In this document: piece after piece, positions 1 through 33,543 of the stretch | Numbering within the stretch: position 1 is the stretch's first letter | How the letters are laid out: each line of letters opens with the position of its first letter | Origin: Vermamoeba vermiformis | Taxonomy: Eukaryota | Direction: 5' to 3' | Length of the DNA: 44,377 nucleotides | NCBI GenBank assembly: GCA_045837725.1 | Contig: JBEWZL010000056.1 | Span: 496,001 to 540,377 of the forward strand | Translations under genes and position numbers: made by a program | The notes under the pieces: generated by a model | Told to the model about the DNA's origin: nothing | Databases searched by the model: none | The model's input: the letters and a program-made list of their open reading frames with translations, nothing else

Positions 1-3000
1 AGCTGATGTTCTGCGCAACGCTATTGAAGATATCGAGCCTGGCATTCAAGTTGAAGAGTTCGACAAGGTTCGATCTGGTCATCAATGCGACACGATGGTC
101 CAATCATTCTTTGACGACACTTCAAAGAAGGCACTCGTTATTCTCTTGGACATGACTAGATCAACGACTACAAGGATCAACTACCTTCGTCATCAAATTG
201 ACAGCTATTCTGCCGCGCACAGCGACCGTTTGGTATTCTTGATCATGCACTTCCCGCCTGATTTCTATTCTGCGCTCAAGCCAGCGCCGCACGTCATCTT
301 CTTGAACGATTGGAATTATCAGTACATTGACTCGCTGGGATTGGAGAGTGATATCTCCGACGATGCGGATCCGTTGGAGATCGACGCTCGAACTTGGCTT
401 GCAATCAGTTGCGGTCTTAATGTCGAAGTTTCGTTGACATCAATCAAAAGCACCTTCGAGAAAGCGTTCTTCGCCCAAGTTGACGCCTTAATGGGGCGCT
501 GGAATGGACGAGGCAGCACACCTGCCTACTTACCCAAATCTCGCAGCAAGATGTTGAAGGAGCTCTTAACCGATAATGCTTCTTTGTATGAATCTGCATT
601 GCTGGAGTTATCTCAACGCTGGCGGGACTACTTGCCGACTATAATGTCCGACATCAGTGCAGCAATTCAAAAGGGCTCTGTCGTTGACAGCATTGCAAGC
701 GTTGTATCGTCTTCCCTTCAATCATTGTTAGCGCTATTTGCTCTTGGATTCCTTCGCCGTTTGTATGGCAACGGTAACTTCGATGCAGTTCAGAATGCGT
801 TGAAGACTGGATCCGAAGACTGCAAGCAGCTCATCATGCTGGCCGTTAAAGCTATCAAAGTACCCAAGTTGAAAACAGTACTTCAGCAGAATTCTGTCAG
901 CGAAGAGCTTTTCACGATCGATTCAACATTCCTCAAACGCCCTTCGTTGCCTTACTACGACTTTATCTACGATATGTTGACTGAAGCTTATCGCAAAGCT
1001 AGAGCACAACAGGCCTCGAACAAGAGCTTTCGCACTCGAGTTCTCGATTACATTCAAGACAACACTGCACTCAAAGAGCTGGTTCAACACATTGACAAGA
1101 GCGAGGAGTTGAAAGACAAGTTCATCATGTGTTTTGTTCAACGCACTCTTGGCTTTGACAAACTTCGTCCCAGTCTGCAAGAGGTTTGCAAGCTCGTCAT
1201 TCAGAAGCTCGTCAACAGTCCTCGAGTTGTTGATTTGCTTTTCGTGAAGCTCACCCACGAAGACAAGTTTACGGTGTTGAACTCTTGTTTGATGCCGTTA
1301 CAAGCACTTGGTTCTGATGATTTGGACAACATACTCGTTGAAAGATTGCAAGAAGCTTTCCACTTGAACGCTCAGGTACGAAACACTTACGTGCCTTGAA
1401 TCGATCAACTAACATTTGTTCAGAATCTAAGCATTGCAGAAGTTGCACCGTTAATCGACATTGTCATTAGCAAAGCTACAGTTGATATTCTCTGGGAGAC
1501 GTTGAATGCTATTGGAGGTGATCGTGATCAATTGAACGAGTGGCAGAAAGCGTTCGGTCTGCTCTTTGACCGCTACCCTTCGCACTTCCATCTCCCATCA
1601 GCTGAGAAAAGCCAAGCATGGAAGTACAGCACGATGGTGTCAGCACTGTTACTAAGTCAACAGTTTGCTGATGAGTGCCTTCCGTTGTTCAACTCGTTCG
1701 AAGCAGTGGCCACAGCATGTGGTGTTGTTCCAAGCGATCAAGTCACTCTCCAACAAGCTCTCCAACAGAGCCACGCACTGATGCAGCAATTGAATATTGC
1801 ACCATCCGAAGAAGTCGTGTACTTCGCTCAAAAACTCTTGCACTCGCTGCTGATTCGTGCATCAACATCTTGCTACGGAAAGGCAAAGTACTTGATCGAA
1901 GAGTTCGTACGACTTTGCAATGGTAAGTAACTGAGCTATTCAACCAATCAATACTAACATAGAGTTAGATGGTGACGTGCCATTGTGGGCTGCGATCCCG
2001 TTCAGCTGGAAAGCGAACATGTTCAATTCATTGGTCAAAATGGCAACTTTAACGGTGCAAGACGAACTAATTCAATATGCTGCCAACGCACTGCAATCGA
2101 CGTTACCACTTCAGTACCAATTCAGCATCAATCCGTTGTCAAAACAGTTGACCAATGAAGAGGCTGCTCTCATCAACAAGCAACTCGTGCAAGAGACACC
2201 ATTGAAACCGTTGAATCCGTTGGAATCGATGCTGTTTTTTACGTTGCTTCAACAGTCAAAGATTAACACAACGAACACTGTCGGCACTATTGTGAAAAAA
2301 TATCTCGAGGTTCCCAACGCGTCAATCTTGGATCAGATTCACAGAGCAGTGTTAGCCACGAGACTGCTTCAGACTTTCGGCAATGACATTTCCACTGCTA
2401 ATTCTGTCACGCAATTGGTCCAAAATTATCCAACAGTTCCAGTCTCTATCATCGACACAATCAAGAAAGTCATCGCTCAAGAAGTGACAGTTCTAAATCG
2501 AGAAGCTTACTTGATTCAATCAATCGCTAACGACGAGCGCTTAGTTGAACTTCTTCAAAATCAACAGATACTCAAGCAAATTGGCATGGATGTGTGGTTC
2601 ATGAACGGTCCTGCAAATATTAGCAGCGATTACTTGCCTTCATTCATCATTGACGAGCATTCACCTCTTCATCGCAAGTACCAACAGATGAAGCAGAGCA
2701 TTGTCGCTGGCAGCGAAGAGCAGTTCTTGCAACTTCTCAATGAGAACACTGTCTTCGAGTCCAGAATGCTCCTCGTGCTCGTGACGTACTACGAGTTCTT
2801 CGTTCACGGTCGAGCATGTGACTTTGTCAAAGCCAAGCTGGACACAATTCTCTCTCAACGACTGAACTTAGTGCCAAGAGAAGTATCAGCACTCCTGTTC
2901 ATCAGCTTGGGTCCAAAGAACACTCCTGTCGAGTTCGATCCTGTGTTCTTGTTCACTACACATGCACAACAACGCCCACAAGTGTACGACTTGAAGTTAG

Positions 3001-4931
3001 CTCACATGCTTGTCAACATGCTTGCGATTGCCATGGGAACACCAACGGACTCCAATCACCTCTACATTCGAATCTTTGCTCCTGAGCAAATGCGAAGAAC
3101 TTTCTGTCCTGGTTCAGATTCAAACAGAGGCAATCACGATTGTGGCTTCAAGTACGATCAATGGACGAACAAATTGACTAGCGGAAGTCAGCCGCCTATC
3201 ATGGGCGATCACACTCTAAAGCGTCTAGCATTGAATACGACCACTTGGGGAGCTCTATGCTGGTGTTGCATTATTGACGAAAACGCTGCAAGTGTCATGC
3301 TAGATAATCAATATCATTTCCTTAACATGGTTGATGTCGACGTGCACGAGTTCGGAAATTGGTCTGCCAGAAAAGGAGAATTAAGTCCTGCCCAAAAAGC
3401 TCGAATATTTATCTTCCGCCGTTACGCAACGTTCTTACAGCTGCTCTACACAAACTACGATGTTTTGGATAATCAGATCCAACCAACTGTCTTCCTCAAC
3501 GAAGTCCTTATTGAACTCATGCATGATGCTGTTAGTCCTGCAAAGCCACCAGCGTTAAAGTCAGTCTTTCTCACCGTTCAAGAAGCGATTAACTACGAAG
3601 AACATATGAAAGGAATATTCAATCGAGTGCTGAACAACATCAAGGACCGTCAAGAAGTGTTCCAACTCGTTGAAAGCCCAATTTTTACATTGGCTCGCAA
3701 ACTCAAGCACAGCGTACGATCGTTTGGACCAATTTTCACATTTGATCAGTTTACAACTGTTTTGGCGAACGCACAGACCAATCGATACACGGACATGATC
3801 TTGGAATTTATTCGCAATATGAATTATCCCTCGTTGTTCACATGCTTGCAGTACGCAACACAACTGATCACGTTTTATCGCACTGTGAATGCACTGTTCA
3901 ACAATCGATTGACAGCGGATGACACTCTGAGACCCATCTCAGAATGCATTCAAATCTTGCGTATTTACGAATTAGAAGACGTTGTGAAACAGTTCGAGAA
4001 CACGTTTATTTTGTTCAAAAAGACTTGGAAGGAGATTACGTACATGCTCACAAAACTCGATCCGGAAGGGTGCATCGGACCCGCTTTCGAATTGGAAGTG
4101 CCACAAATCAACGACACCACGCCGTTCATAGTGTTAATATCTGATCCATACGATCCTCGTTGCATAGACATCATTATCAACGTACTCACTACGCTGTTCA
4201 ATCGTCAAGAGAAACTGTTGTCAATGTGCGACGCTATTCTGCCTGACGCCTGTCCTAATCCAGTGCAAGCCGAGTGGCTGCCATTGCACGCTGATCATCA
4301 ATTCATGTTGCTCAATAGCATTGATTTGGACGTCGTGAAACAGTTCTGCGTGGCACAGCTGACTTTGCCGGACAAGACCGAACTTCACGTCTCACACAAC
4401 GGGCTGTCCTTTAACGCGAAACATGTAGCCATGTTCTTGGTTCATTTACTCCAATCCAAGCCTGTTGTTCGAATCGGCAATCTGAAGCAACGATTCAGTT
4501 ACAAGAGTGGAGACGCAACCGATCTGACGGCTGCAAATCAATCGATAGGAATCAACGTCACTGATATTACACTAAAAGAACCCAAGATACTGTCCAACAT
4601 CCCATTGATATCACCGAGCGTTAATATTATTGAAAATAACCGCCCTCGCTCAGAGGCACTGACGGATGCGAAGAGGATTGTCGTCAGAAAATTCCGTGCG
4701 CAAAGAGGAGGAACTGAAGTGTTCAATCCTCACTCTATTCAAGAGCTGTTAACTGTCGGTGGTCAACTTCTTAAATTGAAGGCTGCCAAAGTACGAAAAC
4801 TAAATTCAGAAGATGAGATCCAAGAGTTTAGTACCCTTGAAAATGGAGAGATTGTGTACCTCACGACTGAAGAAGACGAAAAAAAGCTTCAAACTCATGC
4901 AGCCGCAGGTCATTCAACGACAAATATGTAA
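1..4931 (+). CDS. RNF213/mysterin-like giant protein, copy A (5'-partial; C-terminal E3-like region plus KHA-like domain, no USP domain)
   Basis: ORFs 95-1399, 1502-1930 and 1977-4931 join in frame across introns 1376-1423 (GTACG..CTAAC..CAG) and 1923-1968 (GTAAGT..CTAAC..TAG). Long stretches are nearly identical to 26476-~31010 of the AAA+ gene below. Confidence 0.88.
4671..4885 (+). other. KHA-like (ubiquitin/DCX-fold) C-terminal domain of copy A
   Basis: RIVVRK..GGTEVFNPHSIQELLTVGGQLL..KVRKLNSEDEIQEFSTLENGEIVYL fits the recalled KHA pattern (P.S..ELL..G...L....V.....EI.D...I....l.l). Confidence 0.6.
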
Positions 4932-4952: not shown

Positions 4953-6275
4953 TTATTTGGCGGTTAAGGCGTCAAACAATTTTTCAATTAGTGCCTGCGT
5001 TGATTTCTTCATTCCTTCCTTAATAAATTTTCCTACTTTCATATTGCGCATAATTCTATTAAATTCTTCGCCGAAATTAATGTTTACACCAGGATAATCT
5101 ACGAACGAAAAAATGGCGAGCCAGATCTCGAGCGGCAACCTTTCGAAAGATTCAGGCCTTCGTATTAAATTAACCATTGATATTCTTAGATCTTCTATTC
5201 GCTGCTTTCGCATCTCCATTAATTTTTCTTGGATTTTGTTTGGCTGATCTTCCGGGCTTTGGATCCTGCCGACAACTTTGTGCCGAATATCGATATTTGT
5301 CAACGAATAATTCGTCCCTAATGCATCTATAATATGTTCGATGCAACTATCATAGGAATGATAAACTTCTGCCGCCAAATCTGTTAAAGTCTGATTCGAT
5401 CGCAATCCGTCTGCCAACTTTTCGAAGCCTTTTGGTGTAATATCGATGCCTTTTAAATTTAACGACGTTAACGTCCTATTATTAGACAAAATTTCTTCAA
5501 TTTCGGAAAGATCCGTTTGGATCGCGTAATTTCCAGATATATCTAGGTGTCTTAGAGATCTGTTGTCTATCAATCCGTCTTTCAAATCGTTCAAAGTTAT
5601 TCTTGTGCTATATAAATCGAGACTACGAAGCGTTTCATTGAGTTGCAGAGCTTTGTTGAAAGATCTTTCGAATCCGCTCGGATCTGTCAATTTGTTTCTT
5701 GAAAGGTCCAAATGGGTTAGAATCCTATTGTTTTGTAATAACATTCCAATATATATTAATGATCTACTTTTCAAATTATTGTTCACCAACGATAAGCTCG
5801 TCAAACTTCGATTTGTTTCTAAAACTTGACAGATCAGCTCGCATCCTTCGTCGCCAAGGCTGTTCATTTGCAAATTGAGCTCTTTTAACGTTGAATTTTC
5901 TTCGAATAATTCGCGGAAATATTTCATGCTGACAACGCCAAGCATATTGCCATACAAATTCAGATTCGTAACAGATTTGTTCACTTTCAGGGCATCGACT
6001 AAATAAACGCAATGTTCTAGCTGCATATTCATTTGACTAACATTTAATGATAGTAATGTCGTGTTTTGAGACAACGCCTCGCAAAATTGACGAAATCCGT
6101 CTTTTTCTTCGATCCGTGTCAGATTGAGCTCAGTAATTTTTGGGTCAATTACTACTTTTTTATTCTGCGGCTCATTGCATAATATTTTGTAATCTTCTGC
6201 GTTCGATATCGTGAATTCCTGCTGAATGAAAGCAAAAAAATTAATAATATATCCAAATCCTCTAATGATGACCAC
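4953..6275 (-). CDS. Ribonuclease-inhibitor/NLRC3-type leucine-rich repeat protein with C-terminal F-box-like motif
   Basis: About 28-aa repeats of N.(S/T)L..L.L..N.L (NSTLKELNLQMNSLGDEG, NRSLTSLSLVNNNL). The C-terminus contains LPLEIWLAIFSFVDYP. The true start is uncertain: a likely splice acceptor near 6220 implies upstream exons. Confidence 0.85.
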   Translation of the reverse strand: MVIIRGFGYIINFFAFIQQEFTISNAEDYKILCNEPQNKKVVIDPKITELNLTRIEEKDGFRQFCEALSQNTTLLSLNVSQMNMQLEHCVYLVDALKVNKSVTNLNLYGNMLGVVSMKYFRELFEENSTLKELNLQMNSLGDEGCELICQVLETNRSLTSLSLVNNNLKSRSLIYIGMLLQNNRILTHLDLSRNKLTDPSGFERSFNKALQLNETLRSLDLYSTRITLNDLKDGLIDNRSLRHLDISGNYAIQTDLSEIEEILSNNRTLTSLNLKGIDITPKGFEKLADGLRSNQTLTDLAAEVYHSYDSCIEHIIDALGTNYSLTNIDIRHKVVGRIQSPEDQPNKIQEKLMEMRKQRIEDLRISMVNLIRRPESFERLPLEIWLAIFSFVDYPGVNINFGEEFNRIMRNMKVGKFIKEGMKKSTQALIEKLFDALTAK

Positions 6276-6575
6276 TATACAAATTAAACATATTTAACAA
6301 TTAAATTGATAGAGATCAAGGTAGAATTTAAACCGAAGATCTACGAGCAAAAAAATTAGCACTTACCCGCGAAGCCATCAATGAGGGTACCCAAAGGTCT
6401 TTGTATTATGTCGGTAATAATAAAATACTACTGCATTTGTGTTATTTTAATGGCGGTGCTGAAAAAATAGGAAGAAAGCGCAGGAAAGATTCTGTCCGAA
6501 AATTCCTCAATTATCCGTTATTTATCCTAATTATAAATGATATGACCACATAGAAAACATACTTAGTGGTCGATA

Positions 6576-7868: not shown

Positions 7869-8385
7869 GGCCGCTCAATCCATAGGATCGAACTGCTAAT
7901 AAACGGCAACTTGTGAATATCATTGAAATATTACGAAACTTTACGCGCTTAATGTTGTTTGGTCGTTTGGTCCCTTTCAGATCCGGAACCCTTTGTTTAA
8001 AACAACAACCCACGAGGGCGAACACGTTCAAGGCACAATACAAGAATTAATCGCCCAGTTAACGAACGATTTTATTGTATTGTGACGTAGTTCCTACGAG
8101 CTTTGATGATGCCTAAGATCGATCTTACCTGCGTGCCAATACATTTGGACAGATTTCGACTACAAAAATTTTGAGAAAATGCGGAGTAAGGGAATTATTA
8201 TTAATTTGCATATGCCCTTGATATTTATTGCAATTTAAACCAATTTTAATTTGTTTTTAAATTTTTCACATCTTGATTTTACCTTTGTATGCCACTTTTA
8301 TCAAAATCTTCATGAAATTAATATTAAGTAATTAATTTAATACTGCGTGTTTAATACTTAATTGAAAAAATTAAGCTGCGATCAA

Positions 8386-8401
8386 CAGATGAGCTCATCT
8401 G
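8386..8401. repeat. Perfect 16-bp palindrome CAGATGAGCTCATCTG, with outer AAGCTG/CAGCTT arms
   Basis: Read directly from the sequence. It lies about 240 bp upstream of the ATG at 8643. Confidence 0.8.
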
Positions 8402-8642
8402 CGTCAGCTTTTACTTACGTTAGCACCAATGAGAATGATGGACTCAGTGCAACCAATTCTCGTTCAGAAAGTGAAGATCGTTATTACTTAGTTGAAATTC
8501 CCCGGATTCAGACTTGGTCAACTTCGGTCAACTGAAGTTCAAAAACAAACATCACTTCACCAGCCATTAATATCGAGGTCCCGTGCCAGTAATTCATTCA
8601 ACTGACCTTGCGGTATTAAACAACACAAAGCAACAAAGAATA

Positions 8643-11180
8643 ATGGCTCGAACGAAACAAACTGCTCGCAAATCTACCGGTGGCAAAGCTCCCCGCAAGA
8701 CGATCATCTCGCATGTTATGAATAAGAAAGTTCAGAAGCTACAAGCACAGAATCCTAGCATCAAGATCGATGAAGCTGTAAGTCCAAAGCTTTTCAAAGC
8801 ACTCGAGCCACATCCAGTCGCTAACAATAAGTTCTTTAGGCCCCTCAAGTTATCACTTATGATGTTACTTATGAGACCTCCTTCTATGCTCATTACTTCG
8901 GTACTGGCAGCACCAATGAGACCTTTGAGCCTCGTGTTACTGTGGCAAAGTCTTTCAATCGCAGCATTGACCGAACCAGCGACAATCAACTTGAGCACTG
9001 GGTACGTCAGGCGATATGTCTTAATATCACTAGACATATGACTAATGTGCCATAGGTCTCGGTGGCCTTCAACTCCAAGTACAACGGCCAAGGCATCGTG
9101 CAACATGGTCGACCAAAGCTCAACTTAGTCATCGCTCTTGACGTCTCTGGTTCGATGAGTTCACCGTTCCAAGGCGAGAACAACAAGAGCAAGCTTGATG
9201 TCGCTAAGGAAAGCATCATCACGTTGTTGTGTCAGCTCCAAGAGGTACGCAAGTCGATCGTGAAGCCTTGTTGCACGTGACTTTTTTGACTTACAAACCA
9301 TTAGGACGACTCATTGGGCCTTATGATCTTCGATGACAAGACACACATGATCCATCCCATGCAACGGTACGTTATTTAATCATCAATCTAACAAACCTGG
9401 TCTAACACAAGTTTTAGTTGGGGTGACATCGATCGTCCTGCGCTTGAGAAGTCCATCAAGAACTTACGTATTGGAGGTGGCACTTACATCGCACCAGGTA
9501 GGCGTTATTTATTAAATACAAAAGAAGTCAAGCTGACACTTTGACAGCTGTCGCCATGGCCACGAAGATGTTCGAGAACGCGAAAGAGAGCTCTAGCTTG
9601 TCCAACCGAATCATCTTTTTGACGGACATGGAGGTCTGCACGGACGATGGCATCGAGTTTGAGAACTTCGTGACCAAGAACTCGAGCAACTCTATCTACG
9701 CGACGATCGTTGGTGTCGGCTTGGATCTGAGCGGCGGTGTCATTGAAAAGGTCTCGAAGACTAACGGCTGCAACTACTGCAACGTCAGAACATCACAGAA
9801 CTTCTGGGAAATTATGAACAAGGAGTTTGGCTACTTAGTCGTAAGTCTGGTTTGACACGCGTCACTTTGACACTTTGACACTTTGACACGCGCTAATGAT
9901 GCTTTAGACGCCTGTTGCATTCAACGTGAATATCGAGCTCAAATCCAAGCAATTGAGTTTGCTCAAAGGCTTTGGCAGTCCTGAAGTTCGTCACGTGAGC
10001 AACACGAAAAACGTCAAGTTGTCAACTGAATTCCCTTCAGCTCAAAACGACAAAGGTAAAACTCCATTTCCTTATTAACAATCGTGTACTAATATCATGG
10101 CAGCTGAAACTCGTGGTGGCATGATTTTGTTCAAATTGACGGGCAATGTGGCTGCAAAGGACAAGCACGAGTTGACGTAAGTCCTTTACCTCAGCTATTT
10201 CCTTTTATGGTAAATGCTCATGTTTCACTGAACAGGTTCCAATGGGAAGATGACATGGGCATCACGCACAAGTCGAGCAAAGTGTTGGACTTCAGCGCGG
10301 GTGGTGCGAATGAAGAGTACTACGAGACCAACGCAGTCAGAAAAGCTATCGCCCTCATCAATTACACCGACTTTGTGCAGTACGTAGTCTATTACAAAGC
10401 CATATTATATGAAGCTAATAATTGATTCTGCAGAGGCTACATCGGCATGCGTACCGCTGAAGACACGAAAGAAAATCAAGAAAAATTCAGCAAATACCGC
10501 AAAGCTTTTGCCGGTCAAATTCAACGATTGGTCTCGGAGGGCCAAACAGTGCAAGATCCCACGATGATTGAAGAGTGTAAAATCTTGCTGGAACTCGCTA
10601 AAGAAGATCAAATTAGCCTTGACGACAAGTTGAGCGACGTTGAAGTACTCAAGTTTCACCTCAAAAATCCTCCCGCTGATAACGCCCAACAAGACCAAGC
10701 ACAACAGCCTATTGCTGCAGCCGCCGGTGACAATCAAAACAACAACGAGCCAGCCAATAACAACGCTAACAATAACAAGCGCAAGGCCGACGAAGCTCAG
10801 TTGAACGATGACGAAAAAGTTGTGAAAAAAGCTAAGGCGAACAACAATGACGACTCGCCTAACAAACGAGTGACGCGCAGTCAAGCGAAGAATAACAACA
10901 ATAATGCCGCTGAGGCAAAGAAAACTCCAGCAAAGAAAGGTCGTGGCAAGAAGAACAAAAATTCTCAAGACAACGAAGCGGATCTGTGCTGCGTGTGCTT
11001 GGACGAGAAGCGATGTGTCATGTTCGAGCCTTGCAAGTACGTTTACATGTTTAAACTTATTTAATAGCATCTAACGGTTGTTCGTGCAGTCACATGTGCA
11101 CCTGTCAAAATTGCTGCGCACTCCAAGAATGTCCTTTGTGTCGTGTAGCTGTCAGCAGCACTACGCGAGTGTACGTTTAA
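8643..11180 (+). CDS. Histone H3 N-terminal tail - vWA domain - low-complexity linker - C3HC4 RING fusion protein
   Basis: ATG 8643 gives MARTKQTARKSTGGKAPRK. Introns 8778-8839 and 9002-9055 (and several more) join it in frame to TYETSFYAHYFGTG..RPKLNLVIALDVSGSM (MIDAS DxSxS)..GGGT..RIIFLTD. After an N/K-rich linker, intron 11037-11089 splits the RING CCVCLDEKRCVMFEPCNHMCTCQNCCALQECPLCR. Stop at 11178-11180. Confidence 0.85.
9863..9889 (+). repeat. Intronic tandem repeat (CACTTTGA)x3 plus CAC
   Basis: Read directly, inside the intron beginning at 9841. Confidence 0.8.
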
Positions 11181-11545
11181 ATTTTGCTTAATTTTATTCC
11201 GTTCGCTTTTGTACATAGGTTTTTAGTCGCAATAAAAACAATTTTGAATTACCAAAGTCCAGCTTCAATTGACTTGCCGTGCTTTCTATGCTACTTCGCC
11301 TCGAAGGGTTTTCTTCGTTCATTGTTTCTAAATATCTATTTCACTTGGTTCTAACGATGGCGGGATCCGACTTCGAGACACGGGAATTTAGCCAACTCCT
11401 CGTACGATCGCACAAATTTCGCTTAGCTTTGGTTTTCCTTCCAATAATATTCAACCAACAATTGCTAATGAGAATAATTATACATTGTGCAATTCCAACA
11501 CATCTTTGTACCAATGCACTTGCCTCCTGAAGAGTGAGCTGAAAT

Positions 11546-13012
11546 TTAGTTTCGTTCCTTTTCGCCGAAATATATTTTGAACACAGCCTTAGCAATATCT
11601 TCACCAGTTCTAATGTGAGGCAAGTCCAGCCATTTAAATATCAAGGTCCATATTTCAATAGGGAGCAGATCCAAAGCCACGGAACTTCGTGCAATGTTAT
11701 GCGCGAGTATTGTTGCGTTAATAATAGGATCAAATACCTTTTTGTTGAGTTTTATCATAATTAATTCGTCCATGTATTCGTAACTTTCTTTGTTCGATTT
11801 TGAGTGGATTTGAGCTACATCCAACTGATCTTCCTTAAATTTTAGCGGATAACCAATCTCTGGCATTGAATTATGAAATTCCGATATATATGGATGCGTC
11901 AATGCCTCTGCCGCTGTAATTCTATTTTCTGGTAGTAATTGCAATAATTTTCGGATCAAATCCAACGCGTCTTCAGGTATGTTCGGAAAAATTTCTTTAA
12001 AATCTCGTCGTGTGGGAGGTAGTGGCACGTCATTAAGCAATAATTGGGCCACACTCGACTTGAAATCGGAGTCTTTAGGACATCCAACGAACTCGAAAAT
12101 TTCCTCCAAGAAGCCTTGAAAGGGTGGCTTATTTTCCTCATTATACAAAGCCCCAAGAATACATCCCATAGCCCACATATCAGCTGCTGGCGTTAACGAA
12201 GAATCTCTGACAAAAATAAAAAAAATTGGTTAGATCTGACCGGTTCAAAAGCAGTAGCGCTACATCAGATGGTATCAAATGCACGTACTTTTGCACCCAC
12301 AAAAATTGCTCTGGTGCACTATACTGCGATACTCTATGAAAATTAGCAGAGGGATCTGATTTTAGAAAACCTGGAACGGATGCATCGAGCTTAATTTTGT
12401 CATCAGCGGTAATTCCAACGCTCTCTAACTGTATAATTTAATATTAAGTTAGTATTAATCGTTTTACATGCGATTTTAATGAGTTTACATTCAGGTCGCC
12501 AAAGATCACGTCTGCAGAATGGACGTAATGAAGCGCTCGAAGGATCTGATATATTATATATCTCTTGTACTTCTCGTTTGCTATTTTAGACTTAAGTCTA
12601 TTTATATTGTACAGATTAATTTCTGATAGAAAAATATTAATAAAAATATATGTATTGTTGCGTTTAGATCTGACCTGTGTACTCGCAAGCAACACAAAAA
12701 TATCCTTCTAGGTTATGCACATAATATAGCTGCGAAATATCTTCTCGATCGTTCAATACGTCGAGCCAAATACTGATCTTTCGATAAAAATTATGCGACC
12801 AGCTACCAAGCCATTGGTTCACTAACAACACTTTTTTTTTAGTTTTTTTATGCACACATTTATATAGAAATCCAGCGTACTAATAGAAAGAAGTGTTAGT
12901 TAAATCTTTCGCATCCAGATTTGCTGTCACGCACCGCCTCTTTTCGTAAATAAACTATATCTTCATAATATTTTTTCAATATTGTAACACCACGAGTGTA
13001 TATTGTGTCCAT
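11546..13012 (-). CDS. MAPK-like (CMGC) probable pseudokinase with C-terminal F-box-like motif
   Basis: Spliced model contains YIIYQILRALHYVHSADVIFGDLN, YSAPE, DMWAMGCIL and ALDLIRKLLQLLPENRITAAEALTHPYISEFH (MAPK-type). The Gly loop, VAIK lysine, HRD and DFG are all substituted. It ends with LLPIEIWTLIFKWLDLP. Confidence 0.78.
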
Positions 13013-17419: not shown

Positions 17420-20400
17420 GGCCAATTTTCGGATCATGTCAGAGATCTGCATAACTTTATTCTCTTCGAAGTTTTGCCGGCAAAGGATAAATATAACAAA
17501 GTCGCAGTAATTTGGCTTTACGCTAAATTTCTACAGTAAGTGAATTTAAACAAATTGATCTGGTCAGAATTAATTTCCTTCCGTTAAGATATTCGAAAAT
17601 GAATAATAGCGACACGACCGAATTTGAACATAAGGTTTGGGTTATATTCTTTACCCAAACTCTTTCGACACTTCCGCAGTTGTTGCAGGAGAATCCAGCG
17701 TGGAAAGAACCGTTGAAGAAAATTCTATCCAATGTCACACTGTCTGGCATTAGTCATAATAATTTCATCGACAGACGAGATTTATCAGGCGAGCCAAAGC
17801 TATTCATCGTGACAACTTTAATGTTGTTGGACGATCCCGAAAAACCAAGCTATCTTGACTTGTGGAAACGATTTTGGGTTAAATATGGCTACGCACTGTT
17901 TGAATACAGTAAGCTGAATTCGTTGACGTGGCGCATTGCGTGGAGCAAGTTGTCTGGTTACGAACTATTTCAAGCTCCGTTTGACAAGATCACCTTCGAG
18001 GTATTTAACATTTAGAATCGTTACTTACTAAATCTTCCTTCATGCTTTGGCTCGATCTAACTTACTAATCCTCTACTAGAGCTTTGCTTTGTACGCATCA
18101 GACGTCATTGGTAGTTTTGAAATCGATTGGCCTCGAACGAATGCCTTGGAATTAACGGCAAAGATCTTGAACGGTAAGCGTTTCTGGTTTTACCCTGAAA
18201 AATCTAAGGATCTCTTTTGACCAAATCCGTAAACCAGTTAAACACAATTCTGATATTACGGGACAATATAATGACTAATATTGCCCTTAAATATACGGGA
18301 GTAATTTCAAGTCCGACGTCGTCGGATACGCTTCTCAGGTTCGATCATCACCTTTTTTGTTACCAATAATTTTTCTCTTGCTAATAATGCGTCAAACGCG
18401 TTATTACAACATCCTAGAAGCTCTTAGCGCAGTCCATTTTATTTTTAAAAATTGTCTGATAATTATTTTCTCTTTTGGCTACGGAATCTAACCCTGATAT
18501 TAGAGAAAGTTAACCTGAAGAATCATCGCACTATTCAAAACCTATCTACATGGATAAATGGTCTTTTACTGCTCACAGACTTCATTCATGGTCAATTGGC
18601 TGATCCGCAAGACATTCCAAAGGTCGACATCTGCAAGACTTTGATGCAGCACACAGTTAGCGTGGCGATCAAAGAGAAGCTGTCGCTCAAATCTGAAGAT
18701 ATAGCTCCCGAGCACAATGCAATACTGCAGCATGTGGTCAAGCAGTGTATAAACGATCTGTTGCCGAAGCTTGCGATCTATGACACTCAGTACAGGTAGG
18801 ATCCAAAGGTCCTGTTGTTAAAAACAGTTTTTAACTTAATCGGTCACAGTCCTATTCTACGCACCTACTTGACAGCAGAGAATATCATTTTTGTCCTCAA
18901 CAGACAACGAGTGCCAATCAATTCGATCCGCGATCTGACCGATCACGTGGCTTCAAAAGACAGTGGAAGCGCTCTGGCAATCTTCAAAGCACTAATTGAC
19001 AAGATTAGTTTATCGGAGCTGGCAAAGTTGTATTTTAGCTACCCGAATATGGCTAAACAGCTTCCTACACACATGATCGGACTTGATATAGAAAAGCGCG
19101 TTAACAGCATTACGGTACGTGAGAGTTTAGTATACTAATTATTTACTGACGTATTTTAGAACGTATATCAATCCATTTCGTTGACGGTAATGGAAGAAAT
19201 GCACCGTGTTGAGGATCGGAGCTACGAGTTGCCAGAGATTCACGTGTGGCTAACGGAGAAGTTGGCCGACGCAATTATCGAGAAGGGTTGGAGTAGCGAC
19301 AACAATCCTCTGCCCAGTTTGTGCAACTTTTTGGCGAAGTTCCTGACCAGCAGCGATAACGCGCCTTTACATCCTTGCTTGCTTCACACAATGCTTACGA
19401 AAGCTGCCGTGATGAAGGTGACGGCAAATCTACGCACTTGCTGGACAGCTCTCCCGCGAAACTTTCACGTGCTCTTCGCTCGTGACACGTCTCATCGAAA
19501 CGACCATTACAAAGCCGCTGTGTTGGTTGGTCCGCTCATCAATATGAACGAAGAGTTGAAGGTCGTGGGCACACCAAAGGTGCCTTTAAATCGCCTCAAG
19601 AGGTCGGAGTTGACGAACTTGTGCAGATTTTGGACCCAGCTGCAGAATCGTTTCATCACCGAGGTGATTAAAATCCACGACATGTTCGACGTTTACTCCG
19701 AAGAGTTGCGGCTGTTAGATGAATCAGCCGTCAAGGTTAAGAACGTCAATTTGATTATCGCTTGGCTGAACAATAAGCAATTTCAACCACCACTTGATGA
19801 GATCCAGGTGTCCGAGGATCCGTCACAAAGCGAATTAAATGAACTCGCGGTGCTACCTCAGATTGATGAAAACAGCTTCAAGCACTTGAACTTCTTCATT
19901 CCTGGAGAGAGCGCTCTGTTCAAGGCGATCTTTGACGACAAAAGAAAAGAAGATGCCGATTTACAGGTTTGTGCAATTCGACTAATGATCTGCCTCGCTA
20001 ACCAAAATCTTATAGGAATTGACAAGCGACGCTTTAAGCAAGATTATCGAGAGAACGAGTTTGTTTTTGAAGAATTTGTCGAGTTTGGCGAACTTGGAAA
20101 AGATCGCCGAATACCACGCTCGTTTCCGATCTCGATTTTCAAAAGAAATCAACTTGGTGTAAGTTGTGACGGCTCGGTATCCTTGCATGTATTAACATTT
20201 TCGATAGGGCCAAATTCTTCTCCGAAACAACGGATCTGAACGTCAAGGACTTGGAAAAGTACTTGTTAGATGCGTTTCAATTGCTTGAGTACATCGAGAA
20301 CGTTCACTTCCTCTTGGTGTGCTTGCAAGATTTAAACATTTTCCCCGAAGTCTGGGACGCCCTGCAGCAGCTCTACGACGAGAGGTCTTCTGTGCGATCG

Positions 20401-23400
20401 ATGAAGGCCAATTTGGTGCAGGAAAAGATTAACGAGATCAAAAACGTCATACCAAACTTGACTCCAGAGCACTTGGCTTTCTTCCAAACCATCAGTCACT
20501 CCCGAGACGTGATAAATTTTCTTGGAGAATTCACCGACGAAGCCTTCAATGCGCAAGTGCAGTTCCTCAATGATCACCTGCAAGGATTTCAACACGGACT
20601 CGATTTGGTAACTTCAGCCGTTGCAGTGCGACACTCTTTAGCCCCGGTTCTTGCTACCTTGCAAGCGAAGCGCCTTAAAGCTCCTGCGATGACATTCAAC
20701 GAGTTCTGTAACCAAATGGCAAACATTCTTGGCACCACCGTTAAAAATCACACCGAGCGGCTGAAGTACGTGATGGACAAGCTTTCTGAAGTGCGTGTCA
20801 ACTTCAAGCAAGACGCAAACTTGACCATCGAAGAGATGTTGCCTTACGTCGGCAAGTTGATTAATAACGGCTACTACACTTCGAGGACCACACGCCATCG
20901 AGGAGGAGCGGACATCTCTTTCAAGTTTAAAGAGTCAAATGAAGCAGTTGACCGTGTCTTCCCGTTGGCTGCATTGCAAGACCTCATTGTCGCAATCAAT
21001 GTGTTCGTTGACCAAGATAACATTGACGAATCAAAGCGAAAGTTGCTCGAAGCTTTCATCTCGCTTTACAACCTGGCACGTAAGATTCACGAAATGCACC
21101 TCGCCTTGGAAGAGACTGGTCATCCTGACTACCAAATGATCGAAGTGAAGCTGAACGAAATTGGTGACCTTAATGTTCCGCGTTACCAAGCCAAGCTCAA
21201 GGATCTTACGCAGCAGAAAGACGAGTGGTTGCGAGTCAAAGTTAACATCAAAGACAGACTGCTCATGCTCTCGAACCAGCAGATGGCAATTTTGATTTCA
21301 TTGATCCGAATCTATAATCAAAATGACGCGGTTAACGCTGCCAATGTACTGTCTCCGTACTGCTGGAAGTGCTTGCCAGATATCTCCGTCGCACAAGGAA
21401 ACCTATTCTCGGTTGATATTGTCGCTGAAAGCTTCAATGAAGTGAAGGCCAAGTTTGTCAAGCCAGTGGTATCAATCAGCGACGCCATCAATATCTTCAC
21501 CATGTTGCTCGAGCTCGTGATTCAGAAGTCAATCAAAGAAGAAGAGCTCATCTATTTAAAGAAGACTTATCCAGGAGCGGAGCTCGTGATGGCGCTCGGA
21601 ATGGATAACACTCAGATCTTCTATGCTTTGGCGGATCTGAACGATGAACCACCGCACCCTTCACAGGTTCTTGTTTGCACTCGCTCCACAAAAAAAGACG
21701 AGCTTCTTCGCATTGTAGATTGCGCCTGCTCAGCACCGTGGTTGACTTTCATTCTGGTTGAAGTCAACAACCTTCGAATGGAAGTTCGTGCCTCACTCAT
21801 CGACAGACTTTTGACTCTCGAGCAACAAAAACAACGACACTCATTGAAGCTGGTGTTCACATCTCAAACAGGCATCTCTGGCTTCTCTTTTATTTCTAAA
21901 CGAGACGTGACCGTGGAAACGCTTGGTCAAGTGAAGCACTACCTGGCAAATGAGTCGAAGCGGTTCAAGCCAGACATCGCTCGAAATCGTTATTTTAAGA
22001 CGTTGGAGATCGTTCAAGGAAATCCTGGTGAAGGAAAGTCAACTTCAATTCGACAATATTTTGCACAACAAAGCATCTACTGCTTGGAAATACCATTGCA
22101 AGAAGACTTCACCGTTGCAAACTTCATCCACAGAGTGCAAACAGCCGTCGCTGATGCTCGTAAGAGTGGTCAGAAGGACGTTGGCATTCACTTGAATATT
22201 CTACCGTACATCGACTTCCCTCTTGTCCACGAGTTCTTGTATTCGTGGATGCTCTTTGGTGTGATTTACGACAGCAACATTGGTGGCATGTACCAGCTGC
22301 CAACTGATTTGAATTGGCACGTCCTCGCGGAAATTGGCAGTGCTCCAGCCGAAGACAAAGAATATGGAAGCTACAATAGCCCTGCCAAAGTGTTGACCGC
22401 TCTGCCAGCGTTGAATTTTGTGGCTGAAAAGAAGGACAGACTTCTGAAGCAGTTGGTTTTGGACGACAACATTCGCTTGGCTTGTGCGTTCTACCACCAC
22501 TTCCACAACAGCAATCAGGTCACCACAGCTCACATCATGGCTCTCGTGCCCGTAGCAAACGATGATACTGCGTACAAGATTATTGCACAGATTGTCCAAC
22601 GGGAGCTACAGACTCTTGGCGAGCATCGTAATTTGTTCATCTTCCAACGCATGTTCCTTCACTTGTTGGCAGCTCGATGCAAATGGATCAAGTCCTACGC
22701 TGAGCGATTGACTGTCTTGGCTCGTGAGTTGGCAAACCCTGACTACGTTATCCCAGTCGAAGAGCAATTCTTCTTCAAGCAGTTCATGACGTACTTCATC
22801 ACCGAGGTCGCGCACTTTTGCAAAGCGAACATCAGCTTGAACATCAAGACACTGCCTGTCATTTCACTTCGTGAGGCAGACTCGTTCTGCTTTGTTGATT
22901 GTCAAGGCGCTGGTGTCAAAGACAAGGCAAAGGCTGGCTTGCTTCATCTGACCGGAATCCACGAAACAATTCAGAACCCTAAAGTCATCTTTTCTGCATT
23001 AGCCCTTGCGCTTGGCATCACTGACACACGACGCATGTTCAATGTCATTCGACAGCAACGATTCACGATGACTTTTGACTTCGTTGTCAAGTTATTGCTT
23101 CTCAATGACAGACGAATTGTTGGTCAGAACGTCATTTTCAAAGGAGATACGGGCCTTGGAAAGACCGAAACTCTGGATTTATTCGCTTTGGTACTCAATT
23201 GCAACACCGATTTAGTACCTGACATTATCAGTGATACAGCGCAATTCGTCACCAACAACGTACTTCGCGAGGCTAGCGTGCTTAGAATTCCAAACTGGAA
23301 AAAGCACTTGGATGTTCTTGGCGAAACTGTCCCTTCAGTCAACAAAATCACTGGCGTCATTCGTGAAGTTTGCAATGAACAAGTACCCGTGGTTCAAGGA

Positions 23401-26400
23401 GCAGAAAATCAAGAGCCACAAACCTATTTCCCGTTTGTCGCAAAGAACCTGCTCGAATTCATGCGTCGAATGCTTGCAGCCTATCCGTTGATCGAGTTGA
23501 CTCCAGGATTGCTCAAAGTTTCGAGAATGACTGCGGAGGAATCGGCGAAGGATGTCAATGAACTGGTGCAGCTGTTGGAGGAATTCTTGAAGGCAAAGAT
23601 TCGCCAGCTGTTCCACAAGATTACAATGCACGCTGGTATGACTGCGGAGCAACTCCGAACGAAAATCAACGGATTGAAAAAGTTGAGCGCCAAGATTTCA
23701 CAGACAAGTCCTGACGTCAAGTTGGTTGTCTTTATCGACGAGTTCAACACCACCTCGGTAAGTCAGATTAGTCTATCATTTGTCATTGATGTGTATTAAT
23801 GTTATTTTGCAGATCATGGGCATGGTGAAGAACATTCTGTTCGATCATCGACTTGACGGAGAGCCCTTGCCGTCCAACATCTTCTTTGCTGCTGCAATGA
23901 ATCCTTATACGGTGAAGGAGGTGTCGGGCGAGCTCGATTACACGGGAGTGACGAGCAGCACCAAGTCATTGCCCTTCATTGTCCGACCAAATCCTCAGGC
24001 CATTGATCTGCTCGCGGTTGCATTTTCTGACTTTGACCAAGCCCAAGAGGAGCGGTTCTTGACGGTCTTCAGCAAGACGCGAGACGATCTTGGTAGCCCA
24101 GAAGAAATGGAAATCGTCAAGGACTTCCTATTAGCTGGGCAAAATCAACTGCGGGCTGCCAACATGGAAAGAATTCACGTGTCAATCCGAGACATCATGC
24201 GAGCCATCGATTTGTTCGTCTACTTCTCCAAGACCCCTGCAGGAGCAGCTCTACTCGGATTACCCGCAGACAGCTGCGTTCCTGGACATCACTATTATTC
24301 TCAACGATTCTGGCATTCGCTGTTCATGGCATGCAACATCACTTACCGCATTCGATTGGCAGCAAGAAGCGATTTGCGCAGTGACTTGCTCGCAATTTAC
24401 AAAGCTTTGTGCTTGGCCAATGACTACCACGGTGAATCAATTGAGGATGTAATTGAACGATGCTACACTCACCTCTACGAGTCAACTGCAATACCCGATG
24501 GCATTGCTCGTACAAAGACTTTGATGGAGAATCTTTTCGTGCTGGTCACCTGCATTGACGCAAAGATTCCTGTGATGATTATTGGTCCGGCTGGCACATC
24601 GAAGACTCTCAGCTTTACCATCACTGCGGATAACATGCGCAACAAGGCTTCTTCAAAGGAGTTCTACCGCTTGTTTAGCCAAGTTCATCCGTTCCGCTAT
24701 CAATGCACCCAACATTCAACGGATACGGAGGTTGATGGAGTCTATCAGTCGGCCATTAGGCGCCAGAAGTTCTTTGAGAACGACACTGCCAAGAATACTG
24801 AGCGCAGTACAGTGTTTTTGGACGAAGCCAACTTGCCTGACGACTTTGAAATGCCACTGAAAGTGTTGCACTATCACTTGGATCACCCTGTTGTCTCGTC
24901 GGTCATTCTCTGCAACCGCATTCTGGACGCACCAAAGACGAACAGAGCTGTCGTACTTCAGCTGCCTCCTTCGCTCACTCAAGAGGATTTGTATGCTCTG
25001 GCGAAGGGCAGCTTCTCTGCGGCAGACGAATCCGAGTACAACAGACAGCTTTTGATGGCTCTTTGCAGCGCGTTCTCAAAGATCAACAACGTTGCGAAGG
25101 AGTTCCGCGACAAGTTCTTCCAACATCGCGACTTCATCTACTTCTTACGTTTCTTAAGAACACAGTCCTCTGTTGGACAGTCAGCCCGTATTCAGTTGAC
25201 ACCAAAGCTTCTCATCAATGCTTTGGAGCGCAATTTCAACGGCATTCCCTTCAACGTGTTCCGCAAGATCGTTCAATTGTTTATTGAAGAGTTCAATCGC
25301 TTTATGATGCACAAAGAAACTCCTTGGGATGTTGATAAGATCATTGGCTCTTTGAAGAACAGAACGATTCAACTAATCGAGGAGAGTTTGGCAGAGACTG
25401 TTAAACCTGACGAGAATCCCAACTTGGCACCGTTCCGTTACATGATGTTGCTCGATCCCACGGATTCAGACGCTGCCGTCTCTTTGTTCTTGTCAACATT
25501 CAAACAAGAAGTGGAAGTCTGCTACGTTGGCGAGTTCGACGACGATGCTACAGACGAGGCTCGTGGCAATCTGATCCGCAAAGTCACTCAATCAATGGCA
25601 ACTGGCAAAACTGTGCTTCTTCTGAACGTGTTGCCCATCGCCACTTCGTTCTACGATTTATTCAACAGACACTTCTCGAAGAAGCCTTCTGCGGACCAAT
25701 CCTACTACGCGTACATTGCCGTTGGCTCTAATTCTCGTCCTTGCGTTGTTCACCCGAACTTCAAGGTCATTGTGCACATCCCAATATCGTCATTGGCAGC
25801 AACTCACCTGCCGTTCTTGGATCGCTTTGAGAAGTATCAGCTGTCCGTTGAACAAGTGCTCGAAGCGAAGCTTTCCAAGTTGTCGCTTCAGACTTTCTAT
25901 TGCGCGAACAATACTAAGATTGACGGATTTACAATGTTCAAGAACGCTCTCACTGACATGGTTGAAAAATTGCACGGCGCACAATGCAACGATCAACTGC
26001 TGTACGGAATCAATCCCAAAGAGACAGTGTCGTCATTCATTTATGCGATCTTGCAAAACACACTGTCGGTGTTTTCCGAGACATCAACCAAGATCATGCC
26101 TATGATTTGGGAACCGTTTGAAGTCGAGGAGTGGGCAAAGGCTATCACTGACGAGAGCAACGAAGATCCTGCTTTGAGTGAAGAATTTGCTGCTCCGCAA
26201 GCTCAACCCGAGGACGACGAAGAGGCACTTGTCAATCCTACAGAGCACATTCGAGCAGCCATTCGTCAGCTGAACTTGCATTTAATGCAACTGGCAAGAC
26301 CTGAAATCGTGTTCAATTGCAGAACACTGCCCAAGGCTTACGTGACACACTACTTGCTGAAACAAGAACACTTCAGCGTGCTTCGTTTCTTGAAGCAGTT

Positions 26401-32400: not shown

Positions 32401-33543
32401 TGTTTGACTTGCCTCTTGACATCAAGCCAACGGGTCCCAATCAGCTTCACGAAATGTTGAATGCGTTTATCAACGAGCCAGTCGATGAATGGTGCGTTAC
32501 TGAACTCACGTTAGTTTGTTTAGTATTAACGTTGTTTATTAGGATTTGCACGAAGTGCCAGCAGAAGCACGAGCAAAACATCAAGCACTACAGAATCATG
32601 AAGTTGCCACAAGTTTTGGTTCTGGTCTTCAAGCGGTTCAAAACGACAATGTTCTCACGCGAAAAGGATAGCACTGCCGTTGTCTTCCCAACGAAACACT
32701 TGAATTTGGGAGGTTTTGGCGATGACTTGACATCTTTGGACTTGTGCGGCTCAGTGGTACGTGCTCATTGACAAAACAGCGCCTTGACATAACGCTACTA
32801 TTGCTATCTAGGTCCACACTGGCAGTCTTAATGCTGGTCACTACTACAGCTATTTTATGCGCAACGAACAGTGGTACGCAGCTGATGATTTGACTCAACG
32901 AATCAGACACATCTCGGTGCCGAGCAAATACGAATTGAATGGCTCGTACATTGTGTTCTATTCTGCTGCTCCTGTGGTACCTGCAGTGCACGTGCAAGTA
33001 CGAAGTGAGGCAGGGCAAGAACAGCAGGCCCAGGAAAACACTGCCACCAACGTGACTAACGCAGTCGAGCCGTCGCAAGATTTGCAAGCGGAGTTACTTC
33101 CTGAGCTATCAACGGCTGTCCAATTGAATGAACTCCTCACCCAACTTGAGCAAGGAGCGATGCAGACCGATGCACCTCAAGTTACGCAACCAGCTGTGGA
33201 AGTCAAAGTAGTACCTGTTGTAGCAACATCGATGACGACCTCGGTGGTTGAAGCGAAATCTCCCGAGAGCGAGATCAAAATGACCAGCTCGCTTACCAGT
33301 TCAGCACCAGCACAGCCAAAGACGATCATTGTGCGAAAGTTAGGTGCGAAGAGAGGTGGTGCTGAAGTAGTCAATCCTCAATCGATTCAAGAGCTGTTAA
33401 CTGTTGGCAGTGAATTGCTCGAGATTCATGCTGTCAAAGTGCGCAGAGTCAGAACTGAAGCTGAAATCCGTGACTTGAATGCGATCCAGCACGAAGAAGT
33501 TGTCTTCTTGACTACTGAAGAAGACGAAAAGGATTTTAACTAA
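17420..33543 (+). CDS. RNF213/mysterin-like giant AAA+ ATPase (about 5,000 aa) with C-terminal USP deubiquitinase and KHA-like domain, copy B
   Basis: In-frame joins across introns 17536-17588, 18001-18079, 18174-18503 (tentative), 18796-18849, 19115-19159, 19967-20015, 20159-20207, 23758-23812, 27860-27907, 28407-28452, 32492-32542 and 32757-32811. Walker A-type motifs GNPGEGKST (22018), GDTGLGKT (23143) and GPAGTSKT (24584), Walker B VVFIDEFNT and VFLDEAN. RNF213-type signatures: MPLKVLHYHLD, LDAPKTNR, ALERNFNG, SMATGKTVLLLN..SFYDLFN, CVVHPNFKVIV, PFLDRFEK. The true start may lie upstream of 17420. Confidence 0.9.
26476..31010 (+). repeat. Direct segmental duplication of window 1-~4530 (paralogous RNF213-like region)
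   Basis: Long near-identical blocks at an offset of about 26.5 kb, including both introns at the same positions and lengths (48 and 46 nt). Confidence 0.92.
32050..32962 (+). other. USP (peptidase C19) domain within copy B
   Basis: Cys box NLGNTCYMSSVLQ (Cys 32073-32075), QQDAHEF, CQHC/CTKC zinc ligands, LPQVLVLVFKRF, and spliced His box VVHTGSLNAGHYYSY..WYAADD (His 32839-32841, Asp 32884-32889). Confidence 0.92.
33319..33540 (+). other. KHA-like (ubiquitin/DCX-fold) C-terminal domain of copy B
   Basis: TIIVRK..GGAEVVNPQSIQELLTVGSELLEIHAVKVR..EAEIRDLNAIQHEEVVFL, homologous to 4671-4885. Confidence 0.62.

Follow-up and report, generated by a model that had tools for sequence, protein, structure and literature searches.

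We analyzed a window of 44,377 nucleotides (nt) from the genome of Vermamoeba vermiformis (NCBI GenBank assembly GCA_045837725.1, contig JBEWZL010000056.1, positions 496,001 to 540,377 of the forward strand), and all coordinates below refer to this whole stretch. The gene under study occupies positions 8643-11180 of the forward strand and comprises 11 exons that form a single open frame of 659 amino acids (aa), closed by a TAA stop codon at 11178-11180. All of its introns (10/10) are bounded by GT..AG and they are 48-67 nt long. The predicted product (73.3 kDa, pI 8.0) starts with the tail of histone H3, continues into a vWA domain and ends with a RING domain of the kind found in ubiquitin ligases (E3). 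This architecture had been proposed, and read as a histone mimic, in an earlier note made from the letters of the sequence. For a check of its splicing, four sequencing runs (X1, X5, X18, and X20) were aligned to positions 8000-11500. The gene model was also compared with two related proteins, P0001 and P0002, the former being a Trinity open reading frame (ORF) labelled 'complete' in the EukProt set of Vermamoeba vermiformis. The features of the locus are as follows.

8606..8642, + strand: 5' untranslated region (UTR), minimum extent; the spliced X1 contig starts at 8606, and there is no ATG in 8470-8642
8643..8777, + strand: exon 1, encoding Met, the H3-identical tail, and a 26-residue linker (sequence reading and a PDB search with histone H3 as best matches)
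8646..8699, + strand: tail proper, 18 residues equal to residues 1-18 of mature H3 (PDB alignment)
8700..8750, + strand: predicted helix adjoining the tail (AlphaFold2 model of P0001, helix 21-36, predicted local distance difference test (pLDDT) 81-87)
8778..8839, + strand: intron 1, 62 nt, GT..AG, phase 0 (joint in the X1 contig, X5 contig ends, and the P0001 ORF)
8840..9001, + strand: exon 2, N-terminal strands of the conserved body (gene model and run contigs; body kept in the family alignments)
9056..9244, + strand: exon 3, start of the vWA domain, with D-x-S-x-S of the metal ion-dependent adhesion site (MIDAS) at 9140-9154 (Pfam VWA_2 match on the exon)
9122..9813, + strand: vWA domain, exons 3-6, with the MIDAS Thr within 9473-9484 and the MIDAS Asp within 9616-9627 (Pfam VWA/VWA_2 on P0001 and P0002)
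9305..9366, + strand: exon 4 (gene model and run contigs)
9418..9497, + strand: exon 5 (gene model and run contigs)
9548..9840, + strand: exon 6 (gene model and run contigs)
9908..10055, + strand: exon 7, beta-sandwich part of the body (gene model, run contigs, and AlphaFold2 model)
10104..10176, + strand: exon 8 (X5 has the 10176/10236 joint; X1, X18, and X20 differ here)
10236..10379, + strand: exon 9 (gene model and run contigs)
10434..11036, + strand: exon 10, helical end of the body, basic linker at 10774-10959, and first half of the RING from 10987 (gene model and contigs)
11090..11180, + strand: exon 11, second half of the RING to 11141, then the stop codon (joint 11036/11090 in X1, X5, X18, and X20)
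11181..11254, + strand: 3' UTR, with AATAAA at 11231 (X1 and X5 contigs end at 11254 and 11236)

The intron at 8778-8839 and its junction 8777/8840, which the earlier note had predicted, are seen in the X1 contig, in the ends of X5 contigs and in P0001. One contig of X1 (1563 nt) runs through 8606-8777, 8840-9000, 9055-9242 and onward, with at least 161 letters on each side of 8777/8840, and a second one covers 10762-11036 and 11090-11254. Together these two contigs carry joints at all ten introns, the eighth of which is 10162/10236, with 8 letters replaced, and not 10176/10236. The X5 run yielded a spliced contig of 1932 nt that starts from 8840 with the final 15 letters of exon 1 in front of it, two more records that reach 8777 and then continue with letters of exon 2, and the exact 10176/10236 joint. 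In X18 and X20, which are 88-95% similar to the window, the 8777/8840 joint is spanned by two reads each, with replaced letters. X1 is 95-99% similar to the window, and the best runs share at most 0.21 of the sampled words; X5 is recorded as RNA-Seq and the type of X1 is only guessed as RNA. Exon 1 of X1 presents a single difference (8684 C>A), which is synonymous. P0001 connects the tail to the body through the same exon 1/exon 2 junction, and its identity to the gene model is 87.9% over 622 columns (84.5% for P0002). The window accordingly comes from an amoebozoan near to, yet distinct from, that Vermamoeba strain. The ATG at 8643 is the earliest in the transcript as known, its context is good (AATAATGG), and an in-frame stop precedes it at 8568-8570; over 8000-8584, none of the four runs has any read depth.

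The protein starts with MARTKQTARKSTGGKAPRK. When exon 1 was compared with PDB chains, residues 1-19 (initiator Met included) were found to be those of histone H3, with divergence immediately afterwards (alignment to 7uqj_G). The exact H3 tail at the N-terminus that the earlier note had described is therefore confirmed, including K4, K9, S10, K14, and K18, and 19 identities in a row exclude chance as the cause of the match. The absence of a histone fold after the tail was borne out as well: no core-histone domain (PF00125) was detected by Pfam in the exons, P0001, or P0002, no histone-fold motif is present in the six frames of the 44-kb window, and intron 1, with its 62 nt, is too short to hide a fold. 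Exon 1 also matches, weakly and below the cut-off (E=0.021), the 'PCNA-associated factor histone like domain' of Pfam. In the AlphaFold2 model of P0001, residues 1-14 of the tail are predicted to be disordered (pLDDT <50). The first residues, M-A-R-T-K, conform to the M-Z-R-x-K pattern that defines the human H3TMs, in which the residue at Z permits removal of the initiator Met (PMC8166343). Since Ala at position 2 permits this removal, the mature N-terminus would be the same as that of H3.

The remainder of the protein was analyzed mostly through the relatives P0001 and P0002, which were scanned at full length, as Pfam is insensitive on single exons. VWA_2 was detected on P0001 with E=1.5e-15 (58.2 bits, cut-off 27), and the MIDAS residues (D-x-S-x-S, T, D) are complete in the gene model of the window and invariant across 110 aligned homologues (D127, S129, and S131 in 110/110 sequences). 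After the vWA domain, the body goes on with beta-rich and helical parts, which are followed by a low-complexity, basic linker that resembles a nuclear localization signal (NLS), with 19 K/R in 92 residues. The RING presents eight zinc ligands in C3HC4 order at residues 614-647 of the spliced model (regular-expression match) and is split by the last intron, between exons 10 and 11. Pfam identified it as zf-C3HC4_3 on P0002 (E=4.3e-8, 33.3 bits, cut-off 27), and exon 11 alone gave a half match to this family with 16.7 bits. The RING stays in frame in the window, in P0002, and in the X1 and X5 contigs. The earlier description of a MIDAS-intact vWA domain, a basic NLS-like linker and a C-terminal C3HC4 RING was thus accurate on each count. 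The C-terminal domain of YfbK (PF12034) was absent from P0001, P0002, and the 35 tail-bearing and 40 non-tail members that were scanned, and it surfaces solely as a low-ranked lead in an Atlas search.

The AlphaFold2 model of P0001, built with the 110-sequence alignment, reached a mean pLDDT of 79 and a predicted template modeling score (pTM) of 0.76; most of the body (about residues 50-500) exceeds a pLDDT of 90 and the linker is disordered. A Foldseek search of the body against the PDB returned vWA-plus-beta-sandwich scaffolds with E-values from 2e-17 to 1e-14. The best match was ArnAB (8s05, E=2e-17), and the list included the bacterial vWA protein 4fx5, ITIH1, and the Sec23/24 trunk. Like the body of the window protein, ArnB, Sec23/24, ITIH1, and 4fx5 combine a vWA domain with a beta sandwich, at distant levels of similarity (12-15% identity, TM-score 0.35-0.55). 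Sequence searches of the PDB likewise yielded only generic neighbors of this type for the body. We regard these neighbors as fold resemblance alone, from which no function would be transferable.

Homologues of the protein were collected with a HMMER scan that used P0001 as query against 1.84 billion cluster representatives. The scan gave 3820 matches at E≤1e-3 and 309 at E≤1e-30, and the best 150 were taken. We defined an 'H3-like tail' for the present analysis as at least 9 identities out of 18 and found one in 35 of 151 proteins (P0001 and the best 150 of the 3820 matches), with body identities to P0001 of about 25-50%. A profile search built from these 35 tail-bearing proteins yielded 575 proteins at E≤1e-10, of which the best 120 were taken. 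Overall, 258 homologues of the vWA body were gathered and 118 of them bear the tail, 108 of these being non-redundant. The search for proteins combining an H3 tail, a vWA domain and a RING, which the earlier note had suggested, therefore recovered a family, whose members present either a RING or a U-box. The tail directly follows the Met in 107/108 sequences and begins at residue 2 in 98/108; tails with an upstream extension are mostly metagenome gene calls.

The family is widely distributed, as judged from the names given by the sources. It was found in Amoebozoa (Vermamoeba, Protostelium, Cavostelium, Rhizamoeba, Paramoeba, and Physarum), in fungi (the chytrid Cladochytrium and the endogonalean Jimgerdemannia and Endogone), in sponges (Sycon, Corticium, and Oscarella), in bdelloid rotifers (Adineta and Rotaria), in a choanoflagellate (Acanthoecidae sp.), and in the chlorarachniophyte Amorphochlora. 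One further protein, P0009, comes from an amphipod record that may be contamination. In the Atlas search, the nearest cluster combined vWA and U-box and its commonest taxon was haptophytes, which we treat as a lead only. In public records, members of the family are labelled 'hypothetical protein' or 'VWFA domain-containing protein'. We also scanned viral contigs for a single H3 N-terminal pattern: a vWA body was found in 0/41 loci, and 38/41 run on into a histone fold, as ordinary H3 genes do. One locus on a contig binned as a giant virus (L003:3001-3435) contains an ORF of 145 aa whose first 22 residues are an H3 tail and which continues as a Glu/Gln-rich sequence without a histone fold. Separately, 18 and 22 RNA reads of X18 and X20, respectively, match just the 42 tail-coding nt at 8658-8699 and then continue into a sequence that is neither the present gene nor the usual H3. 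This points to another H3-tailed transcript in that relative.

The presence of the tail is associated with the presence of an E3 domain. Among 35 tail-bearing representatives, all of which possess a vWA domain (35/35), Pfam identified a U-box in 10, zf-C3HC4_3 in 7, and zf-C3HC4 in 2, compared with 0, 0, and 0 among 40 non-tail homologues (bacterial and Met-Gly-type eukaryotic). Conversely, based on precomputed domains and among the profile-search matches listed, 52 of the 55 proteins with a RING or a U-box present the tail, and the three exceptions (P0002, P0009, and P0206) all have truncated N-termini. On these counts, the tail travels with the E3 module, and the module has been swapped between RING and U-box while the tail persisted. 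The nearest non-tail eukaryotic homologues, such as P0039, P0055, P0077, and others, start with Met-Gly leaders and lack an E3 domain. We take these leaders to resemble N-myristoylation signals or lipid anchors. The N-terminal leader of the vWA scaffold therefore seems to be an exchangeable address.

We then built a tree with FastTree from 110 rows and 387 columns of the body, from which the tail columns were excluded; the root was not inferred and the supports are local. All 34 bacterial and Met-Gly-type rows formed one clade with a support of 100, and all tail-bearing rows fell outside of it. The tail label requires 3 changes on the tree as compared to 30.7 in shuffles, and two of these three changes are due to the fragment P0002 and the divergent P0026. 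The window protein, represented by P0001 and P0002, falls into a RING subclade with other amoebozoans and rotifers (support 96). The sponges form a clade apart from it, as does a large group made up mostly of U-box members. The distribution is consistent with a single origin of the tail, provided that the root would lie on the non-tail branch. The window protein possesses all three traits of the family: the tail after the Met, the MIDAS body and the C-terminal RING.

Conservation of the tail was then evaluated position by position across the 108 non-redundant tails. Beyond residue 19, the H3 sequence used as comparator agrees with P0261, P0262, and the PDB alignments. Identity to H3 ranges from 0.81 to 1.00 over positions 1-17. 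The most conserved positions are G13 (1.00) and T3, Q5, and A7 (0.99 each), and T3, Q5, T6, A7, and G13 are all at 98-100%. Among the lysines, K4 is at 0.92, K14 at 0.87, and K9 at 0.81, the minimum of positions 1-17. Identity falls to 0.61 at position 18 and to 0.40-0.65 at positions 19-22, and it is below 0.2 from position 27 onward; in some members it reaches about residue 27-30 (~30 in P0012). The family profile (A1) has its best PDB matches with residues 1-38 of histone H3 (E ~1e-14). The tail is the slowest-evolving part of the protein, with bodies that are only 25-45% identical. Because T3, Q5, T6, A7, G12, and G13 are nearly invariant over such diverged bodies, these results suggest that the tail is held by H3's own specific binders, beyond its charge.

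Variation at position 9 deserves a separate description. The residues found there across the 108 tails are K (88), R (7), Q (4), L (3), V (2), M (2), C (1), and F (1). Cys, Val, Leu, Phe, or Met occupies this position in P0004, P0010, P0014, P0015, P0016, P0022, P0028, P0030, and P0213, and the clade formed by P0014, P0015, P0016, and P0022 (support 99) is substituted throughout. It is possible that hydrophobic residues at position 9 could act as a natural lysine-to-hydrophobic methyltransferase trap. In P0014, P0022, P0036, and P0213, the segment of H3 that follows the tail ('...RYRPG.VALREIR') has also been kept ahead of the vWA body, P0014, P0022, and P0213 belonging to one small clade. This suggests that the 5' portion of an H3 gene was the source of this part of the protein, or that the two were repeatedly exchanged.

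Our favored interpretation, to which we assign a probability of roughly 0.55, is that this expressed E3 ligase of nuclear type would present, as its N-terminus, an endogenous surrogate of the H3 tail, through which readers and writers of the cell's H3 tails are recruited and linked to ubiquitylation. After removal of the Met, the mature protein would expose a free and flexible N-terminus of the H3 type. The cell's H3-tail readers and writers would bind this surrogate tail and probably modify it. Binding would bring the vWA-RING module beside these factors, and ubiquitin would then be transferred either to the factor bound by the tail or to a partner that the MIDAS site holds. It is also possible that the activity of the ligase is gated by how the tail is modified. 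The net effect would be to link the H3-tail machinery to ubiquitylation off the nucleosome. The conservation of the tail at the extreme N-terminus of more than 100 diverged homologues, beside two types of E3 domain, argues strongly for the histone mimic that the earlier note had envisaged.

Several observations weigh against this interpretation. The splice support comes from relatives at 95-99% identity and not from the window's own strain, and the start of translation at 8643 and an unclipped tail are predictions made from sequence. In P0001, the frame shifts just before the RING (relative to window positions 10960-11036), so that the RING is lost; this could reflect either an assembly error or a strain difference. 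About 16 of the 35 tail-bearing representatives have no E3 domain in Pfam, a count that is an upper bound, as are all counts of missing E3 domains, since many database members are fragments; some of these 16 are fragments and others may be truly without the domain. Moreover, K9 is replaced by L, V, M, F, C, or Q in 13/108 tails and K4 by R or Q in 8/108, and a Physarum-like group presents degenerate tails, so not all members can be faithful substrates. Finally, the direction of action might be that of a bait, a switch, or a self-substrate.

Alternatively, the tail might serve targeting only, as a histone-type signal for nuclear import or chaperone handling of a vWA-RING ligase, outside the biology of readers and writers. 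H3 tails function as import signals, the tail is basic and N-terminal, and the Met-Gly leaders carried instead by the non-tail eukaryotic homologues give the leader the look of an exchangeable label. However, the window protein possesses its own separate basic NLS-like linker, and import would leave unexplained both the near-invariance of T3, Q5, T6, A7, G12, and G13 and the position immediately after the Met; we therefore consider targeting alone to be unlikely, although plausible. We find it improbable that the protein is its own substrate, with lysines of the tail accepting ubiquitin from the RING or U-box of the same chain and the resulting mimic of a ubiquitylated H3 tail recruiting readers. 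PAF15 and UHRF1 offer a model for the recruitment of readers of ubiquitylated H3, and an E3 domain and a lysine-rich flexible tail do occur on one chain, as does the weak PAF histone-like match of exon 1. Yet this match reflects only the similarity to H3, and conservation is lower at K14 and K18 than at the positions without a lysine.

The earlier note had also raised the possibility of a pathogen decoy (Legionella RomA was its example). In such a role, the tail would lure histone-modifying effectors made by intracellular bacteria or by viruses that infect amoebae, and the RING would mark them for destruction. The host is an amoeba close to Vermamoeba, and such amoebae harbor intracellular bacteria. 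As a primary function, the decoy is unsupported given that the family is also found in sponges, rotifers, a choanoflagellate, fungi, and a chlorarachniophyte, with a tree that fits a single origin: the same architecture across distant eukaryotes implies that the selection maintaining it must be general to eukaryotes. Nor is the rapid lineage-specific change of conflict genes seen, as the tail evolves slowest. We judge this explanation to be very improbable, although the tail might play a secondary role as decoy in amoebae. Finally, it is hardly credible that the fusion is an artefact, with a tail exon that is outside the mRNA or untranslated and that would belong to a chimeric gene model or to the relic of a degraded H3 gene. 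The splice check covered runs at less than 99% identity and the start codon is a predicted one, but spliced contigs and independent 'complete' transcript ORFs join tail and body in frame, and they do so in Vermamoeba, Protostelium, Cavostelium, Rhizamoeba, and Paramoeba. In addition, the window contains no remnant of a histone fold, and the ATG at 8643 comes first in the transcript and in a good context.

A more speculative extension of the surrogate-tail interpretation is that the family would constitute a soluble probe of the histone code dating from early eukaryotes, with a tail that is written and read like that of H3 and a RING or U-box that turns this state into ubiquitylation, by which the cell would adjust, as a feedback, how abundant or active its histone-tail machinery is; we consider this extension doubtful. 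Under this scenario, the members with Met, Leu, Val, or Phe at position 9 would be traps of H3K9 methyltransferases of the lysine-to-methionine type. We presume that they would then be endogenous counterparts of oncohistones and EZHIP.

Histone mimicry is known from a small number of animal and viral proteins that carry short motifs. PAF15/PCLAF, EZHIP, the SNAG domain, and viral mimics are short histone-like peptides that occupy the sites of readers or enzymes, their motifs are often internal or C-terminal, and they are lineage-restricted; to our knowledge, none of them is fused to a vWA-E3 scaffold. Canonical histone H3 shares residues 1-19 with the window protein and differs by its histone fold, which the window protein lacks. 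The plant RGLG ligases combine a vWA-type domain with a C-terminal RING, as the window protein does; unlike the window family, they are not known to carry an H3 tail. The closest parallel is offered by the human H3TMs. These proteins have only the N-terminal M-Z-R-x-K in common with H3, and their N-termini interact in vitro with NuRD and with readers of H3K4me3 (Chen et al. 2021, PMC8166343). Like the window protein, the H3TMs described there are non-histone proteins that present an A/x-R-x-K N-terminus to PHD/Tudor readers and NuRD after removal of the Met. In contrast to the window family, they are transcription factors and kinases of unrelated types whose match to H3 is limited to ~4 residues, whereas the window family shares 18-19 residues with H3, extends across eukaryotic supergroups and presents one vWA body with an E3 module. 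Relative to known histone mimicry, the new elements are that the tail is complete, N-terminal, ancient, and tied to an E3. A full-text search of the literature, whose scope left out most subscription journals and supplements, returned no description of an H3 tail on a vWA, RING, or U-box protein, and the family has apparently not been described so far.

From amoebae to chlorarachniophytes, a full H3 tail (17 to ~27 residues) has been kept on the free N-terminus of a ubiquitin-ligase scaffold that is not a histone. If this tail is read and written like that of H3, the machinery of the 'histone code' acts in part on a soluble, non-nucleosomal substrate, and an unrecognized ubiquitin-dependent control loop on chromatin enzymes may exist. 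Antibodies against marks of the H3 tail may then also detect a ~73 kDa protein in organisms that bear the family. Peptides of the tail in mass spectrometry may likewise report this protein, because cleavage fragments within residues 1-18 are equal to those of H3. The family also constitutes a natural experiment on which residues of the tail matter.

Several minor observations were made in the same window. Intron 6 of the H3-tail gene holds a short tandem repeat of 'ctttgaca' units at 9860-9885. The gene is flanked by a leucine-rich-repeat protein and a protein kinase at 4953-6293 (- strand) and 11546-12229 (- strand). Both flanking ORFs contain a similar short motif at their N-terminal end ('LP.EIW..IF'), which we take to be F-box-like. 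Further downstream, at 19160-33543 (+ strand), lies a giant and almost intron-free gene whose product combines AAA domains of the dynein type with a ubiquitin hydrolase at its C-terminus (UCH, E=1.6e-24). Part of this AAA-UCH gene recurs at 2-4931 (+ strand) with near-identical stretches of protein, and the pair looks as if a very large AAA-deubiquitinase had been duplicated in tandem.

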